From an uncultured Candidatus Saccharibacteria bacterium (GTDB taxonomy: Bacteria > Patescibacteriota > Minisyncoccia > Phycocordibacterales > Zambryskibacteraceae), in contig CAZAZG010000002.1 in the NCBI GenBank assembly GCA_964489565.1, positions 1-31,983 of the forward strand: a DNA stretch of 31,983 nucleotides. Direction: 5' to 3'. How positions within the stretch are numbered: the first letter of the stretch is position 1; every line of letters starts with the position of its first letter. Positions 1 through 29,608 of the stretch are shown piece by piece. The translations under genes and the position numbers were made by a program. The notes under the pieces are model-generated. The model was not told the DNA's origin. It made no database searches and saw only the letters and a program-made list of their open reading frames with translations.

Positions 1-93
1 GCAAGGAAATTTTTTGGTTTTTGCACACGCGAGTCCGCGAGCGTGTCCGAGGCGCGCATCATTCCGCATCAGGGTTCAATTCAAAATACATTA

Positions 94-116
94 GGGTCGG
101 CGCTTCGCGCCGACCC
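94..116. repeat. Perfect GC-rich hairpin with GC-TTC-GC core (GCGAAGC on minus strand)
   Basis: GGGTCGGCGC (94-103) and GCGCCGACCC (107-116) are exact reverse complements around TTC. Confidence 0.8.
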
Positions 117-147
117 CATTTCGGCTTCCAATTCTGATTTCCAATTT

Positions 148-171
148 TGGCGGAGGGTAAGAGATTCGAAC
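148..171 (-). repeat. Duplicated 3' end of tRNA-Ser (att-like direct repeat, ends in CCA)
   Basis: 150-171 is identical to 306-327 (22 nt). In tRNA sense the copy reads GTTCGAATCTCTTACCCTCCGCCA. Confidence 0.9.
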
Positions 172-305
172 CTTACAGGTTCTGTCCCCTGTTTGGATTT
201 TTCTGTCGCTTTTTTAAAGCTCAGAAAAATACTCAAACAGGCTTCGAATCTCACACGCAGATGTCAAACACCTGCTCCACCCGAAAAACCCGAAATGGGT
301 TTTTT
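150..305 (-). mobile_element. tRNA-associated ~156-bp hairpin element, copy A (putative miniature integrative element)
   Basis: Lies between tRNA-Ser and its 3' duplicate. Inverted T-arm copy at 243-252; stems 188-195/234-241 and 197-205/222-230; CTGTAAG motif at 172-178 on minus strand. Confidence 0.6.
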
Positions 306-306
306 G

Positions 307-391
307 CGGAGGGTAAGAGATTCGAACTCTTGGTGGGTTTCCCCACACCACGTTTCCAACGTGGCGCACTAGACCGCTATGCGAACCCTCC
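307..391 (-). tRNA. tRNA-Ser(GGA)
   Basis: Acceptor GGAGGGT/ACCCTCC, anticodon arm CCACG-TTGGAAA-CGTGG, long variable arm, T-loop TTCGAAT; CCA not encoded. Confidence 0.95.
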
Positions 392-10709: not shown

Positions 10710-11468
10710 ATGAAACACTTTTTAGGCGCAATGATTCTTTTCTTTTCTACCCCCTCCTCTTTCCTTTTCGCATCGGATATTATCACACTCAACTTTCCCT
10801 ACACGACAATCGCAAAAGGTCAGACGATTTCAATGACTTGGACTGAACAAGATTCTGACGCTACCGCCTACACTGTGCACCTTCTTGGTGGCAGTCTCGG
10901 ACAAAACAAACGAACTATTGGATTGCTCGACACAGATACGGTAGATTCGTTTAGCTGGGCTGTACCAAGCGATCTTGAAATTGGAAGTGGCTATCAAATA
11001 CAATTTGTGGGTGCGGGTACCGCAGGAGACACGACGAATCTATTTTCAATCACTGGCCCAAGCACCCAAACTCAAACAACTCAATCAACCACTACCCCAC
11101 CGACCACAACGATGCTCAGTAATACTGATTTGCAGAAAAATACTCCCGCCCAAACAACTGTCGTACAAAAAACAATTGCTCCAAGCACTGCAACTATCAC
11201 GAGCAGTATGTCGAGCATAGTGAGCACGTGTGTGGCCATCACAAAAGATTTATCTTTTCGCTCAAAAGATACTGCCACTTCTAAATCCGTATATCAGCTC
11301 CAACGCTTTCTTGAAACAAACGGGTATTTACGCATTAAACCGACTGGATACTATGGTCTCTTCACAAAAGAAGCAACAAAAGCATTTCAAAATGAATATT
11401 TTATTAATCCAACGGGAAAAACAGGTCCAATAACACGAGCGAAGATACGAGCCCTGACCTGTAAGTAA
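10710..11468 (+). CDS. Secreted protein: Ig-like beta domain, Thr/Ser-rich linker, C-terminal peptidoglycan-binding domain
   Basis: Signal-like N-terminus; WT...FSWAVP...YQIQF beta pattern; VYQLQRFL...TGYYGLFTKEATKAFQ...PTGKTGPITRA resembles PG_binding_1. Confidence 0.75.
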   Translation: MKHFLGAMILFFSTPSSFLFASDIITLNFPYTTIAKGQTISMTWTEQDSDATAYTVHLLGGSLGQNKRTIGLLDTDTVDSFSWAVPSDLEIGSGYQIQFVGAGTAGDTTNLFSITGPSTQTQTTQSTTTPPTTTMLSNTDLQKNTPAQTTVVQKTIAPSTATITSSMSSIVSTCVAITKDLSFRSKDTATSKSVYQLQRFLETNGYLRIKPTGYYGLFTKEATKAFQNEYFINPTGKTGPITRAKIRALTCK

Positions 11469-11492
11469 TAGTTTTTTGTTATACTATCTTCC

Positions 11493-12671
11493 ATGGATAA
11501 AATCTTTGCGTATGCAAAAAAAAGAGAAGCGTTAGGACATGTCTATGGCGCAAACATCATTCTCTCAATCCACTTCTTTTTAATTATTTATATCAACTCC
11601 TCAGCACTCGGGCGTTACTTTTCAGCGGGCACTGTGGGTCTGCTCTACGGAGTAGGATCATTTCTTGGATTATTCCTGTTTATCACAGCTCCGATTCTCA
11701 TACGAAAGCATAGCGCTTACTCATACCTGTTTACGGTCGCTATTCTTGAATGCGCAGTTGTGATTGGAATTGCGCAGACTGCGGTCCCCTTTTTCATTGC
11801 TTTCTTTTTTATTCTTCACTGCGCACTTGTGCCGATGATCCTCTACTGTCTTGATGTCTACCTCGAAGATGCCACGAAAGTTGAAAATGAGACAGGAAGT
11901 ATCCGTGGAGTATATCTAACAATCACGAATGTCATCCTCGTGTTGTCCCCCCTCTGTATGGGATTTCTTATGAAACAGTTTTCCTTTGAAAGTGTGTATT
12001 TCTTTTCTGGACTTGCGTTGCTCCCCCTCATTCTTCTTATTCAAATGTATCTTAAAGACCGAGAACCAGAGGCACCAAAAAGGACATCGATTGGAAAGAG
12101 TATTTCCCTCGCACTCAAACATCCTGATATCAAGTACAGCATTCTCGCGCAATTTATCTTGCAGTTTTTTTATGCATGGGTGGTTATCTATCTTCCCCTC
12201 TACCTCATCAATGAAGTAGGGTTTGACTGGAACACACTCGGATACCTCTTTACTATTATGCTTCTGCCATTTATGCTTTTTGAAATTCCTGTGGGATGGC
12301 TTGCTGATAGAAAATTTGGGGAAAAAGAATTTATGATATTTGGATTTTTGTCTATGGCAATTGCTGCGGCATCACTTACCATTCCCTTTGAAAAACACTT
12401 TATTACCTGGGCGATACTCCTCTTCTTCTCTCGCTTTGGCGCAAGCTTTGCCGAGATCACCACAGAAAGTTATTTCTTTAAACATGTAAAGTCAGACGAC
12501 AGCGACCTCATTAGCCTCTTTCGAATGACAAGGCCTGCTGCATATATTCTTGCACCACTTATTGCCACCATAGCACTTTCGATTGTACCCTTTAGAGCAA
12601 CGTTTTGGATCCTTGGATGCATTATTCTATTCGGCGCAGTCTTTGCATTTCAGATCAAGGACACGAAGTAG
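11493..12671 (+). CDS. MFS transporter
   Basis: About 12 hydrophobic segments, GWLADRKFGEK motif-A-like loop. Confidence 0.88.
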   Translation: MDKIFAYAKKREALGHVYGANIILSIHFFLIIYINSSALGRYFSAGTVGLLYGVGSFLGLFLFITAPILIRKHSAYSYLFTVAILECAVVIGIAQTAVPFFIAFFFILHCALVPMILYCLDVYLEDATKVENETGSIRGVYLTITNVILVLSPLCMGFLMKQFSFESVYFFSGLALLPLILLIQMYLKDREPEAPKRTSIGKSISLALKHPDIKYSILAQFILQFFYAWVVIYLPLYLINEVGFDWNTLGYLFTIMLLPFMLFEIPVGWLADRKFGEKEFMIFGFLSMAIAAASLTIPFEKHFITWAILLFFSRFGASFAEITTESYFFKHVKSDDSDLISLFRMTRPAAYILAPLIATIALSIVPFRATFWILGCIILFGAVFAFQIKDTK

Positions 12672-17133: not shown

Positions 17134-17204
17134 TGCGGGATCGTCTAATGGTAGGACATTTGCCTCTGAAGCAGAGTATCTTGGTTCGAGCCCAAGTCCC
17201 GCAG
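17134..17204 (+). tRNA. tRNA-Gln(CTG)
   Basis: Acceptor TGCGGGA/TCCCGCA, anticodon loop CTCTGAA, T-arm CTTGG-TTCGAGC-CCAAG; CCA not encoded. Confidence 0.95.
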
Positions 17205-17351
17205 CAAAAAAATCGCGAAGCTATTTTTCGCAGGAAGAGGTGCTGGGAGCACTTCGCCTTGGGCTCGAAAAGCTTTTGAGGCTAAAATTGATTTTATAAA
17301 TTTTAGCCAAAAGGTATACTGATTCTGTAAGAACCGAGACCCCAAGTCCCG
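17205..17351 (+). mobile_element. tRNA-associated ~150-bp hairpin element, copy C
   Basis: 17258-17269 is the exact reverse complement of tRNA 17185-17196; stem 17280-17289/17299-17308; CTGTAAG at 17325-17331; 17341-17351 repeats tRNA 17191-17201. Confidence 0.6.
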
Positions 17352-17433
17352 AATCAATTGACTTTCTAAATATTTAATATAGTTTTCATTGCAGAATGCA
17401 ATTTAGCTAAAAACTTCTAACGGAGAAACTTGC

Positions 17434-17892
17434 ATGTCGAAAAATAAGGCAGTGCCCTCCGTCTTTCTCATTTTTCTAGAGAGAGACGGCACGATTACGT
17501 TGCTTCGTCGAAACAACACAGGGCATATGGATGGGAAGCTTGGCTTACCATCAGGAAAAATTGAGGAAGGTGAGTTGCCAGAAGAAGCGGCAGTCCGAGA
17601 AGGACTAGAAGAGGTTGGCGTGGTGATTCAACAAAACAACCTTGAACTTGTTCATTTGCAGTATCACTCACAAACGCCCAATCTTGGCGGCGACTATGTC
17701 AACTTCTACTTTTTGGTTCGACATTGGGTAGGTAAGTTGATAAATAACGAGCCAGGTATGTGTAGTGAGTTGATTAAAGTTAACCTCAATTTCAATAATC
17801 TTCCTTTAGACATGATTCCATACGTCGCAAAGGCATTACCTCATTGCAAGTCGGACACGATTGTTTACAGCACCCACATCACCCGATTGTAA
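17434..17892 (+). CDS. NUDIX hydrolase
   Basis: Nudix box GKIEEGELPEEAAVREGLEEVG; NNEPGMCSEL. Confidence 0.92.
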   Translation: MSKNKAVPSVFLIFLERDGTITLLRRNNTGHMDGKLGLPSGKIEEGELPEEAAVREGLEEVGVVIQQNNLELVHLQYHSQTPNLGGDYVNFYFLVRHWVGKLINNEPGMCSELIKVNLNFNNLPLDMIPYVAKALPHCKSDTIVYSTHITRL

Positions 17893-17935
17893 TCGGGTGG
17901 TGTTTTTTTAAAAAAACGTTTCAACTCTATACCAC

Positions 17936-18100
17936 ACAGCCAGCGAAAAATACCGTAGGTAGTTTTTCTGTGGAAAAAAGCAAATGATTTTGCTTATAGA
18001 TTGAACTCAAAGCCCGGTTGAGCATTTTCTGAGCTTTGAAAAGGTGTAAGGAAAATCCAAACAGGCTACTGGTTCTGTAAGAACCGAGATCCCAAGCCTG
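17936..18100 (+). mobile_element. tRNA-associated hairpin element, degenerate copy B
   Basis: Shares TTTTCTGAGCTTT (18025-18037) and AAAATCCAAACAGG (18052-18065) with copy A (minus strand), and TTCTGTAAGAACCGAGA (18073-18089) with copy C. Confidence 0.55.
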
Positions 18101-29394: not shown

Positions 29395-29608
29395 TTATTG
29401 TAATTGCTTCTTTAAACCAGACCACGAGGAGCGACACTTTTTAAATTTAGCTCACACGCAATAGCAAGTTTTTTGCTGTATAGGCTTCATAATACATTAA
29501 CCCACAATTAATATCTATTTTTTTGTGCTCAGCCAACCTCCTTCGAAAATCATCAGTTGAGCCTACAAAAAACCTGTTATTGGGCGTGAGTCTATAAACA
29601 TAATGCAT
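29395..29608 (-). pseudogene. Degenerate small GIY-YIG nuclease gene (frameshifted)
   Basis: First frame MHYVYRLTPNNRFFVGSTDDFRRRLAEHKK...LMYYEAY (stop at 29447); continuation LAIACELNLK and SSWSGLKKQL in other frames. Confidence 0.75.

Follow-up and report, generated by a model that had tools for sequence, protein, structure and literature searches.

The stretch of DNA considered here, contig C2 of assembly GCA_964489565.1 (the genome is called G000 below, and this contig of 31,983 nucleotides 'the window'), comes from an uncultured Candidatus Saccharibacteria bacterium and carries a 156-bp insert at the 3' end of a tRNA-Ser(GGA) gene. The insert is probably a copy of a Patescibacteria-wide family of gene-less DNA insertion elements, ~130-160 bp in length and serviced in trans. 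It repeats the end of the tRNA, is missing from the same site in relatives, and shares its core and the layout of its parts with elements that stand behind other tRNA genes and at 5S rRNA and protein-gene ends, with arms matched to those targets. Patescibacteria genomes are highly streamlined, yet there are ~20 core copies here, with most of the elements on the ends of essential genes and the genes intact.

The insert at tRNA-Ser(GGA)

The assembly has 681,564 bp in 88 contigs (GC 43%, 95% complete, tmRNA present). The tRNA-Ser gene was called by ARAGORN, with an Rfam 15 covariance-model search at a permissive threshold run alongside; folds were compared with those of 200 shuffles under DNA and RNA parameters, and a covariance model, R1, was built from an alignment of 82 element cores, the Ser copy among them. 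A preliminary description of the window had reported that 22 nt of the tRNA 3' end recur 156 bp downstream, and the block is exact at 306-327 and 150-171. The direct repeat extends over 27 nt with one mismatch, is exact over the 22 nt GTTCGAATCTCTTACCCTCCGC (tRNA sense) and has a spacing of 156; its proximal copy (A1) continues as CAAAAAACCCATTTCGGGTTTTT, the tRNA being followed by AAAAAA and then a hairpin with a T run, and its distal copy (A2) continues as CCAAAATTGG. Because the block is present on both sides of the insert, the tRNA-Ser gene stays whole. The internal parts were located in the order given earlier (trailer, small hairpin, inverted T-arm, long hairpin, CTGTAAG), and the features of the locus are, in tRNA sense:

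464-436, minus strand: promoter-like TTGAAA-17-TAATAT ahead of tRNA-Ser(GGA)
307-391, minus strand: intact tRNA-Ser(GGA) gene (ARAGORN; Rfam RF00005, 54.2 bits, E 1.7e-10)
306-327, minus strand: A1, the proximal 22-nt block of the direct repeat, T-loop G53 to C74, the working 3' end of the tRNA
284-305, minus strand: trailer of an A run, a hairpin of 3 G-C and 5 A-T pairs, and a T run (from sequence; paired in both folds)
275-282, minus strand: left arm part 1, GGGTGGAG in tRNA sense (RNA fold; family comparison)
258-274, minus strand: hp1, a small 7-bp hairpin dividing the inverted arm (folds; homologous hairpins in other copies)
243-252, minus strand: left arm part 2 (anti-T), TTCGAATCTC (inverted-repeat search)
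168-247, minus strand: conserved core (best R1 match, 74.9 bits, E 4e-15)
188-241, minus strand: P1 and the long imperfect hairpin, within the core
183-187, minus strand: GACAG, within the core (family consensus TACWG)
168-182, minus strand: 5-bp hairpin with TGTAA loop, within the core, CTGTAAG being 172-178
150-171, minus strand: A2, the distal 22-nt block, running on into the native CCA (148-150) and flank
92-118, minus strand: native terminator of the tRNA locus, a 12-bp GC-rich hairpin (terminator scan)

The anti-T segment is the exact reverse complement of the T loop and the T-stem 3' strand (the inverted 10-mer is GAGATTCGAA); 8 further tRNAs of this genome have such a segment between +32 and +74. 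The GGGTGGAG arm pairs, in the RNA fold, with CTCCGCC of the acceptor 3' strand plus CC, and is also similar to GGTGAG, a generic family motif seen in non-tRNA copies; it is because of this resemblance that the pairing with CTCCGCC is taken to be imperfect and register-shifted in the Ser copy. The hp1 loop is TTG here as against YGGGR in the family. The trailer is terminator-like and bidirectional in shape. The native terminator, now 190 bp from the tRNA, has its hairpin conserved in the flanks of two relatives, G021 and G002.

Folding bears out the structure proposed earlier in its closure but not in its detail. The insert folds beyond chance both as DNA (-44.5 kcal/mol, z = -8.4) and as RNA (-67.3 kcal/mol, z = -7.2), with 0 of 200 shuffles folding as well in either case, and the predicted structure is a three-way junction whose closing stem joins the inverted T-arm copy to the direct one. 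CTGTAAG, which had been placed in an asymmetric bulge, instead supplies the TGTAA loop and the pair that closes it in a conserved hairpin of 4-5 bp (168-182), one arm of the junction. The insert was rightly called gene-less: it holds no open reading frame (ORF) within its 156 bp, and no promoter-like site was found in it. An encoded CCA on the displaced copy only, also remarked on earlier, is true of tRNA-Ser but does not serve as a general argument, most tRNA genes of this genome being without one whether an element is present or not.

Empty sites

The comparison set comprised 41 genomes of the order, of which G000, G001 and G002 belong to one genus. In G002 the orthologous tRNA is directly followed by CCAagattggaaatcggaattagaag, which matches the flank CCAaaattggaaatcagaattggaag lying 3' of the distal copy here; in G021 the site is empty too, with the GC-rich native terminator in common, and neither empty site has the trailer. 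Since both genomes carry an empty site with matching flank, the ancestral state is read as tRNA-CCA-flank, and the 156-bp insert, together with the loss of the encoded CCA from the working tRNA-Ser gene, is on this sequence comparison the derived one. The insertion proposed in the preliminary description is thereby supported, and the finding that it had named as fatal to its proposal, the same insert fixed in all relatives with no other copies, is the opposite of what is seen: there are empty sites and many further copies.

Copy number and distribution

The 75-nt core has ~24 copies in G000 by R1 with E up to 1 and 16-18 at stricter thresholds, and BLAST gives core matches on other contigs of this genome and in relatives. 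Of these 24, 13 follow a same-strand tRNA at a distance of 59-278 nt, so that 12 of the 31 tRNA genes are covered. Many tRNAs are followed, between +32 and +74, by an inverse of their own T loop and T stem and, roughly between +135 and +200, by a direct 3'-end copy, namely Ser(GGA), Gln(CTG), Arg(CCT), Arg(GCG), Val(TAC), His, Arg(TCG), Gly(TCC), Trp, Glu(TTC) and Glu(CTC); the order of parts seen at the Ser gene is thus repeated, with arms re-matched, behind Gln, Arg, Val, His, Gly, Trp and Glu tRNAs. Over the 41 genomes R1 counts 0-22 core copies per genome, with none in 12 of them: within the one genus there are 18 in G000, 22 in G001 and 0 in G002, and G037 has 20. The core was not found, under stricter filters, in 150 genomes drawn evenly from the phylum.

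A scan for exact matches to ATCCAANNNGKKTACWGNNNNTGTAA across 185,579 species genomes gave at least 119 stretches. Among the matches listed, nearly all are from Patescibacteria metagenome-assembled genomes (MAGs), those labelled being Saccharibacteria, Paceibacterota, Kaiser-, Taylor- and Nomurabacteria; the exceptions are unlabelled MAGs and one Microbulbifer match, apparently due to chance. Again among the matches listed, 48 of 84 instances lie 75-140 nt behind a tRNA (a few up to ~260 nt) and then carry the T-loop-to-3'-end sequence of that same tRNA, often identical over at least 20 nt, and several others are at contig ends. Rfam 15 at the permissive threshold recognized only the tRNAs in the Ser copy and six canonical loci, and a full-text literature search found no description of the family, which is widespread in Patescibacteria and apparently undescribed. 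Carriage on viral contigs was considered and rejected: 12 IMG/VR matches to the core motif are chance ones, inside phage coding regions and without the hairpin.

The window itself holds a further region of the kind at 17134-18100. There tRNA-Gln(CTG) is followed by a complete Gln-matched element (core 17265-17335), then by a 152-aa NUDIX-like ORF (17434-17892) with its own terminator, and past it by a second complete element (core 18007-18085) that ends in a decayed tRNA-Gln 3' end; the arrangement, a gene between two elements, is cassette-like. The start of the window lies ~150 bp beyond the displaced tRNA-Ser end, and many contigs of the assembly start or stop at tRNA-linked elements. The repeats probably fragment this assembly, and would explain the frequent contig breaks at tRNA genes in such genomes.

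Architecture, targets and arms

Elements of ~130-160 bp recur at dozens of loci in many genomes. In the tRNA-linked copies the 5' part consists of the tRNA 3' third (A1), an A run-hairpin-T run and the complement of the acceptor 3' strand. Then come hp1 (consensus GAAAGYGYTGGGGAGCRCTTTC, loop YGGGR) and the complement of the T-stem 3' strand and T loop. The core follows, with GAAGCC, P1 and the long hairpin (TTGAG...ATCCAA), GG(G/T)TACWG and the 4-5-bp stem with its TGTAA loop, and after it (C)GA and the tRNA sequence from the 3' part of the T loop to the 3' end (A2).

A tRNA 3'-end site, as first proposed, suits about 12 other tRNA genes of this genome but is too narrow, for the ends of rplK (loci L098 and L158), ftsZ (L112) and 5S rRNA (L135) are targets too. 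There the last 16-33 nt of the gene are found ahead of the element, inverted just after, and again in direct orientation past the TGTAA hairpin. At ftsZ both direct copies are identical over 34 nt, and the stop codon contains the boundary, reading TGA in the gene's copy but TAG in the displaced one. At protein-gene targets (L098, L112) hp1 is missing, and the gene end meets its inverse in a plain snap-back palindrome whose loop is 4-13 nt long. In copies without an obvious duplicated target both target-matched segments are replaced by GGTGAG-hp1-GCAAGACC. Because one scaffold carries interchangeable target-matched arms at tRNA, 5S and protein-gene ends, targets appear to be recognized by complementarity.

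The identity block ends at the functional end of the target, whether tRNA position 73/74, the stop codon (or 1 nt past it) or the end of 5S rRNA, a pattern better accounted for by a crossover at the left edge of the block, with the remainder making the gene whole again, than by staggered nicks placed at random. In a set of 43 tRNA-linked elements, agreement of the inverse T segment with the working tRNA averages 80% and often reaches 10-11 of 12 positions, even where the distal copy is decayed or derives from a different tRNA (L091, L101, L117, L125, L133, L160, L163). Since the match outlives the distal copy, the working gene end and the inverse arm are evidently kept in pairing, whether by selection or by palindrome correction, and the distal copy has the behaviour of a relic.

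Some more complex arrangements deserve mention. At L160:6358-6760 (Paceibacterota MAG JBBDJV010000010.1) the element behind tRNA-Pro has a Leu unit nested precisely at its TGTAA-hairpin end, made up of a 3' end of tRNA-Leu type, a trailer, an anti-Leu arm and a core. A small circle integrating at the hairpin foot would give this arrangement, and so would core-to-core recombination. Upstream of tRNA-Glu(CTC) in G000 (C19:8250-9045) there are tandem 242-bp repeats that represent a second type of tRNA-linked module, on the 5' side; each combines the tRNA 5' half, as far as the anticodon stem, with a further repeat module and a TGTAA hairpin of TACAG type ~40 nt ahead of the gene. A different non-coding module that also recurs, GAGCCGGAGCG...GAGGCGGGGTCGC...AAAATTCAGNAGAATTTT...TGTGACC, occurs at C12:14600-15050, C7:100-340, C39 and C52:3500-3600 of G000 and at L158; it is interleaved with cores behind tRNA-Ile, Asp and Val and rplK, with target-end copies on both sides.

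Probable pairing at the level of DNA

In P1 (8 bp) and the TGTAA hairpin there are double changes at 9 of 13 pairs, with 2 G.U and 6 non-pairs in 1,066 pair cells. Among 172 hairpins, all Watson-Crick types occur at the four inner pairs, together with 4 T.G and 8 A.C or C.A. RNA helices normally tolerate G.U, and because it is nearly absent here the structure is taken, with moderate confidence, to be paired as DNA, in one or both strands; the lack of a promoter-like site in the element and a trailer that resembles a terminator ahead of the arm are counted with this. In the arm helices G.T is not enriched, at 6 versus 20 A.C, and the numbers are too small and too alignment-dependent to name the strand. 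Hammerhead-, T-box-, tmRNA- and Y-RNA-like readings of the core were tried and dropped, their defining motifs being absent and Rfam giving no support.

A possible mechanism

The element would have entered tRNA-Ser(GGA) somewhere within the 22-nt block, between the T loop and C74, leaving the displaced native 3' end (CCA, flank and native terminator) downstream. It brings a terminator-like trailer, an arm that is split by hp1 and complements the 3' third of the tRNA itself, a conserved core of 75-80 nt in which the long hairpin, TACWG and the TGTAA hairpin make up a three-way junction, and a second gene-end copy, either by duplication or as cargo. The active form may be single-stranded DNA, in which the inverted arm would pair with the gene-end copy to give a duplex 'image' of the target beside the conserved hairpins. 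A structure-specific enzyme encoded elsewhere would then cut and join at the foot of the TGTAA hairpin, with the target chosen by base pairing or identity with the arm and no fixed recognition sequence. A circle would be expected to have a junction of the TGTAA hairpin, the 22-nt block and AAAAAACCC.

A bolder version can be offered as a tentative and rather doubtful proposal, namely that the family is a new class of prokaryotic mobile DNA, made up of mini-elements with no enzyme of their own, in which a DNA arm sets the target through its complementarity to a highly expressed gene's end. This arm would pair with the exposed sense strand of tRNA, rRNA, rplK and ftsZ ends, having been copied from the target at insertion or being kept matched by palindrome correction, and a housekeeping or novel structure-specific enzyme would act at the conserved three-way DNA junction. 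The targets are all highly expressed, and it is a matter of speculation that their sense strand, exposed at transcription ends or as lagging-strand template, could pair with the arm. If true, this would be base-pair-programmed DNA integration without a guide RNA. For this family, identification of the enzyme would open up a DNA-insertion system that is compact and programmable, and with it a new way of targeting gene ends. Meanwhile the family confounds island prediction based on att sites, and it offers fast-evolving strain markers.

The search for the enzyme

What, then, could service the element? A census of seven enzyme families was taken over the 41 genomes, and the whole-genome sequences of G002 (0 copies) and G037 (20 copies) were used for gene subtraction. 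The answers, with a few other considerations, weigh against an element family serviced in trans. No candidate enzyme tracks the element. The preliminary description had seen no integrase in the window, and there is no recombinase in it; the single tyrosine recombinase (PF00589) in G000, of Xer type, is unlinked, on contig C16 (9877-10416), and is universal, with orthologues in element-free genomes as well. Serine recombinase (PF00239), IS110 (PF01548) and TnpB (PF07282) were not found, and reverse transcriptase (PF00078) is a 26-bit fragment in G000 and absent from G037 with its 20 copies. Of the 29 element-positive genomes 20 have genes for Y1 HUH transposases, as do 6 of the 12 element-free ones (Fisher p = 0.30). 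No excised circle, junction or single-stranded form has been observed, and the reading gives no account of how the arms come to match a new target. Cores within G000 are only ~75-87% identical, with no recent burst visible. The scarcity of G.U is indirect evidence for DNA. Finally, an 'empty' site could also arise anew when the 22-nt repeats recombine and the DNA between them is lost, which leaves polarity at a single locus unproven.

Among the matches listed, 119 core neighbourhoods have no adjoining integrase or island; the neighbours are housekeeping genes only, such as those for LepA, YraN, a Mur ligase, the CCA-adding enzyme and RbfA. ORFs present in G000 and G037 and missing in G002 are mostly housekeeping (dnaX, adk, map, dut, murD-like); the same subtraction also gave two Y1 genes, one GIY-YIG gene, an rve fragment, a Pif1/HTH_40 helicase and a PaaX/Cas2-like protein. 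The GIY-YIG (PF01541), helicase and PaaX/Cas2-like proteins were rejected as partners, none having a clean association with the element.

Several things met along the way may be recorded. For dnaX, adk and map there is no tblastn match in G002 (674,745 bp, 20 contigs), probably owing to an assembly gap. Stand-alone GIY-YIG genes of 80-130 aa number 0-12 per genome beyond uvrC over the 41 genomes, and a GIY-YIG remnant lies in the window at ~29519-29608, between ftsE and ftsX. A 23S-rRNA-intervening-sequence protein (PF05635, an Avd-like four-helix bundle) is encoded in G000 at C1:25182-25532 and C4:11734-12078, both copies being without a homologue in G002.

Alternative explanations

It is unlikely, if not strikingly so, that the insert is instead an element like a REPIN (a paired form of the repetitive extragenic palindrome, REP) or a palindrome-associated transposable element (PATE), moved on single-stranded DNA by a Y1 HUH transposase of the RAYT or IS200/IS605 type. 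The TACWG tag and TGTAA hairpin would on that account be the recognition end, and the inverted arm an extended version of the IS200/IS605 guide. In IS200/IS605 elements a guide beside the hairpin base-pairs with the target, and excision is precise. Variable stems with a conserved loop and 5' tag, and covariation of Watson-Crick type only, fit recognition of single-stranded DNA. Y1 genes (PF01797, Y1_Tnp; HUH and YxxxNP motifs; ~220-250 aa) are present in G000 (two intact, at C41:4948-5616 and C15:1401-2063, and one broken), G001, G037 and G027, with none in the element-free G002, and in 10 of the 12 genomes with at least 8 copies. Nonetheless the association over the 41 genomes is, as stated, not significant, G005 and G029 having 10-11 copies and no Y1, and G034 four Y1 genes and no copy. 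No core lies within 1.5 kb of 15 Y1 genes, those of G000 are flanked by hairpins of their own that are different, and such transposition yields no target duplication of 16-33 nt. Because REP and RAYT presence is known to correlate poorly (PMC3733652), involvement of an HUH enzyme keeps a share of the probability. The RAYT-like genes of G000, with their own REP-like hairpins, represent a separate small-repeat system: CTTGGCGGTTTAACCGCCAAG is found ahead of, inside and at the end of the C15 Y1 gene (C15:1370-2060; also on C6 near 11450-11500), and ACTAGGTCTTGCCTAGT flanks the C41 Y1 gene (C41:4900-5640).

Also unlikely is a folded-att element, comparable to integron attC or CTXphi, that bears a spare gene end in the manner of classical tRNA-integrating elements and is handled by a tyrosine recombinase, either the genome's Xer-type enzyme or a phage or plasmid integrase. 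Termination of the block at the target's functional end is usual where attP and attB share a segment that makes the gene whole again; integron cassettes have their parts in the same order (direct site, cargo, inverse site, loop, direct site); the nested unit at L160 resembles integration of a circle; and the NUDIX gene of the window stands between two elements at tRNA-Gln. This has to be set against the lack of IntI and of any linked integrase, against the occurrence of the sole tyrosine recombinase equally in element-free genomes, and against the core being on no viral contig. Moreover, a core site read by protein is hard to see because different targets have no sequence in common at the left boundary of the repeat (the T loop at tRNAs, GCC|GTTCC at ftsZ and GGG|GAGAG at 5S rRNA).

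The repeat might alternatively be a long and variable target-site duplication, made by a nick or staggered cut and polymerase copying (target-primed or snap-back), with the inverted arm produced on the spot by fold-back copying of the target. This would account for repeat lengths that vary from 16 to 33 nt, the snap-back palindromes without hp1 at L098 and L112 and the identity of A1 and A2 over 34 nt at ftsZ, and new unique targets such as ftsZ, rplK and 5S rRNA do require target-templated arms. It has rather little probability, however, for hp1 inside the inverted arm at tRNA targets is impossible by fold-back copying, the arm of the fresh Ser copy is an imperfect complement, the repeats stop at gene ends as random nicks would not, and G037 has no reverse transcriptase.

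Quite improbable too is that the insert is not mobile at all and serves as a functional structured RNA or a cis-acting tRNA 3' trailer, be it a terminator or processing module or a tRNA-like minihelix. A terminator-like hairpin directly 3' of the tRNA, a strong fold, an arm that stays complementary to the working tRNA end, and GA-rich apical motifs in the long hairpin that could be a protein-binding RNA motif would suit it. Copy numbers of 0-22 among close relatives, with 0 in G002, would not, and neither would the empty sites, the elements behind protein genes and 5S rRNA, the near absence of G.U or the lack of a promoter in the element and of an Rfam match. As to the scar of a larger island or prophage, later deleted so that attL and attR were left close together, a tRNA 3'-end duplication is the classical att signature, but recurrence of the ~130-160-bp size and internal order at dozens of loci in many genomes largely refutes this very remote alternative, the core being conserved and no random residue, with no island or integrase beside the 119 listed cores.

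Comparison with known systems

A family of gene-less elements serviced in trans calls several known systems to mind. Miniature inverted-repeat transposable elements, which are DDE-transposase derived and have terminal inverted repeats common to all copies, are unlike it: here the outer inverted arms are target-derived and differ from copy to copy, and the repeat is 16-33 nt as opposed to a short duplication of fixed length. The omega RNA (reRNA) of TnpB and the bridge RNA of IS110 resemble it in having a conserved scaffold beside a segment that matches the insertion site, but neither gene is in these genomes and the covariation argues against an RNA scaffold.

With REP/REPIN-RAYT systems and the PATEs of IS200/IS605 the family shares small non-coding hairpin repeats with a conserved tag beside a variable stem, copy number that varies among relatives, covariation of DNA type, Y1 genes in many hosts and a guide next to the hairpin that pairs with the target. 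REPs are defined as short palindromes with a GTAG (or CGTC) tag that flank a RAYT gene, as a REPtron (PMC3733652); the family, by contrast, has TACWG with no GTAG or CGTC, does not flank Y1 genes and is weakly associated with them. The PATEs of IS200/IS605 insert 3' of a fixed tetra- or pentanucleotide and do not duplicate the target, whereas the family has no common left-boundary motif, has a 16-33-nt target duplication, and has a complementary arm of 10-20 nt rather than 4 nt.

The CTXphi type of integrative mobile element exploiting Xer, whose folded single-strand attP is used by host XerCD, is similar in that an inverted target-like pair folds into a duplex mimic and a host enzyme acts in place of a recombinase of its own; it differs in that its target is dif, while the arms of the family mimic many gene ends and no phage genome is attached. 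Elements that integrate at tRNA or tmRNA genes by tyrosine integrases (at the T-loop sublocation), and their integrase-less derivatives, are alike in the duplication from T loop to 3' end, in keeping the gene functional, in the use of conserved gene ends as targets, and in tandem and nested arrays. The family differs from them in its size of ~150 bp, in having no integrase in or near the copies and an extra inverted target copy inside, and in one conserved core being used at 15 or more different tRNAs as well as at protein-gene and 5S ends.

The likeness to integron attC, which the preliminary description had put forward, stands in its logic, the fold and the Watson-Crick covariation fitting DNA, and falls as regards membership, there being no IntI, attI or R''/L''/L'/R' boxes; no R'' (RYYYAAC) or R' (GTTRRRY) is common to the arms at tRNA, rplK, ftsZ and 5S targets. 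The arms are copies of target gene ends that vary from copy to copy and the conserved part is the 'loop' (the core), the reverse of attC. On every sequence-defined criterion, then, attC membership fails and the likeness is one of logic only: a gene-less or single-gene unit in the order direct site, cargo, inverse site, variable loop and direct site, with stems conserved in structure over sequence, probably a folded single-strand substrate and serviced in trans.

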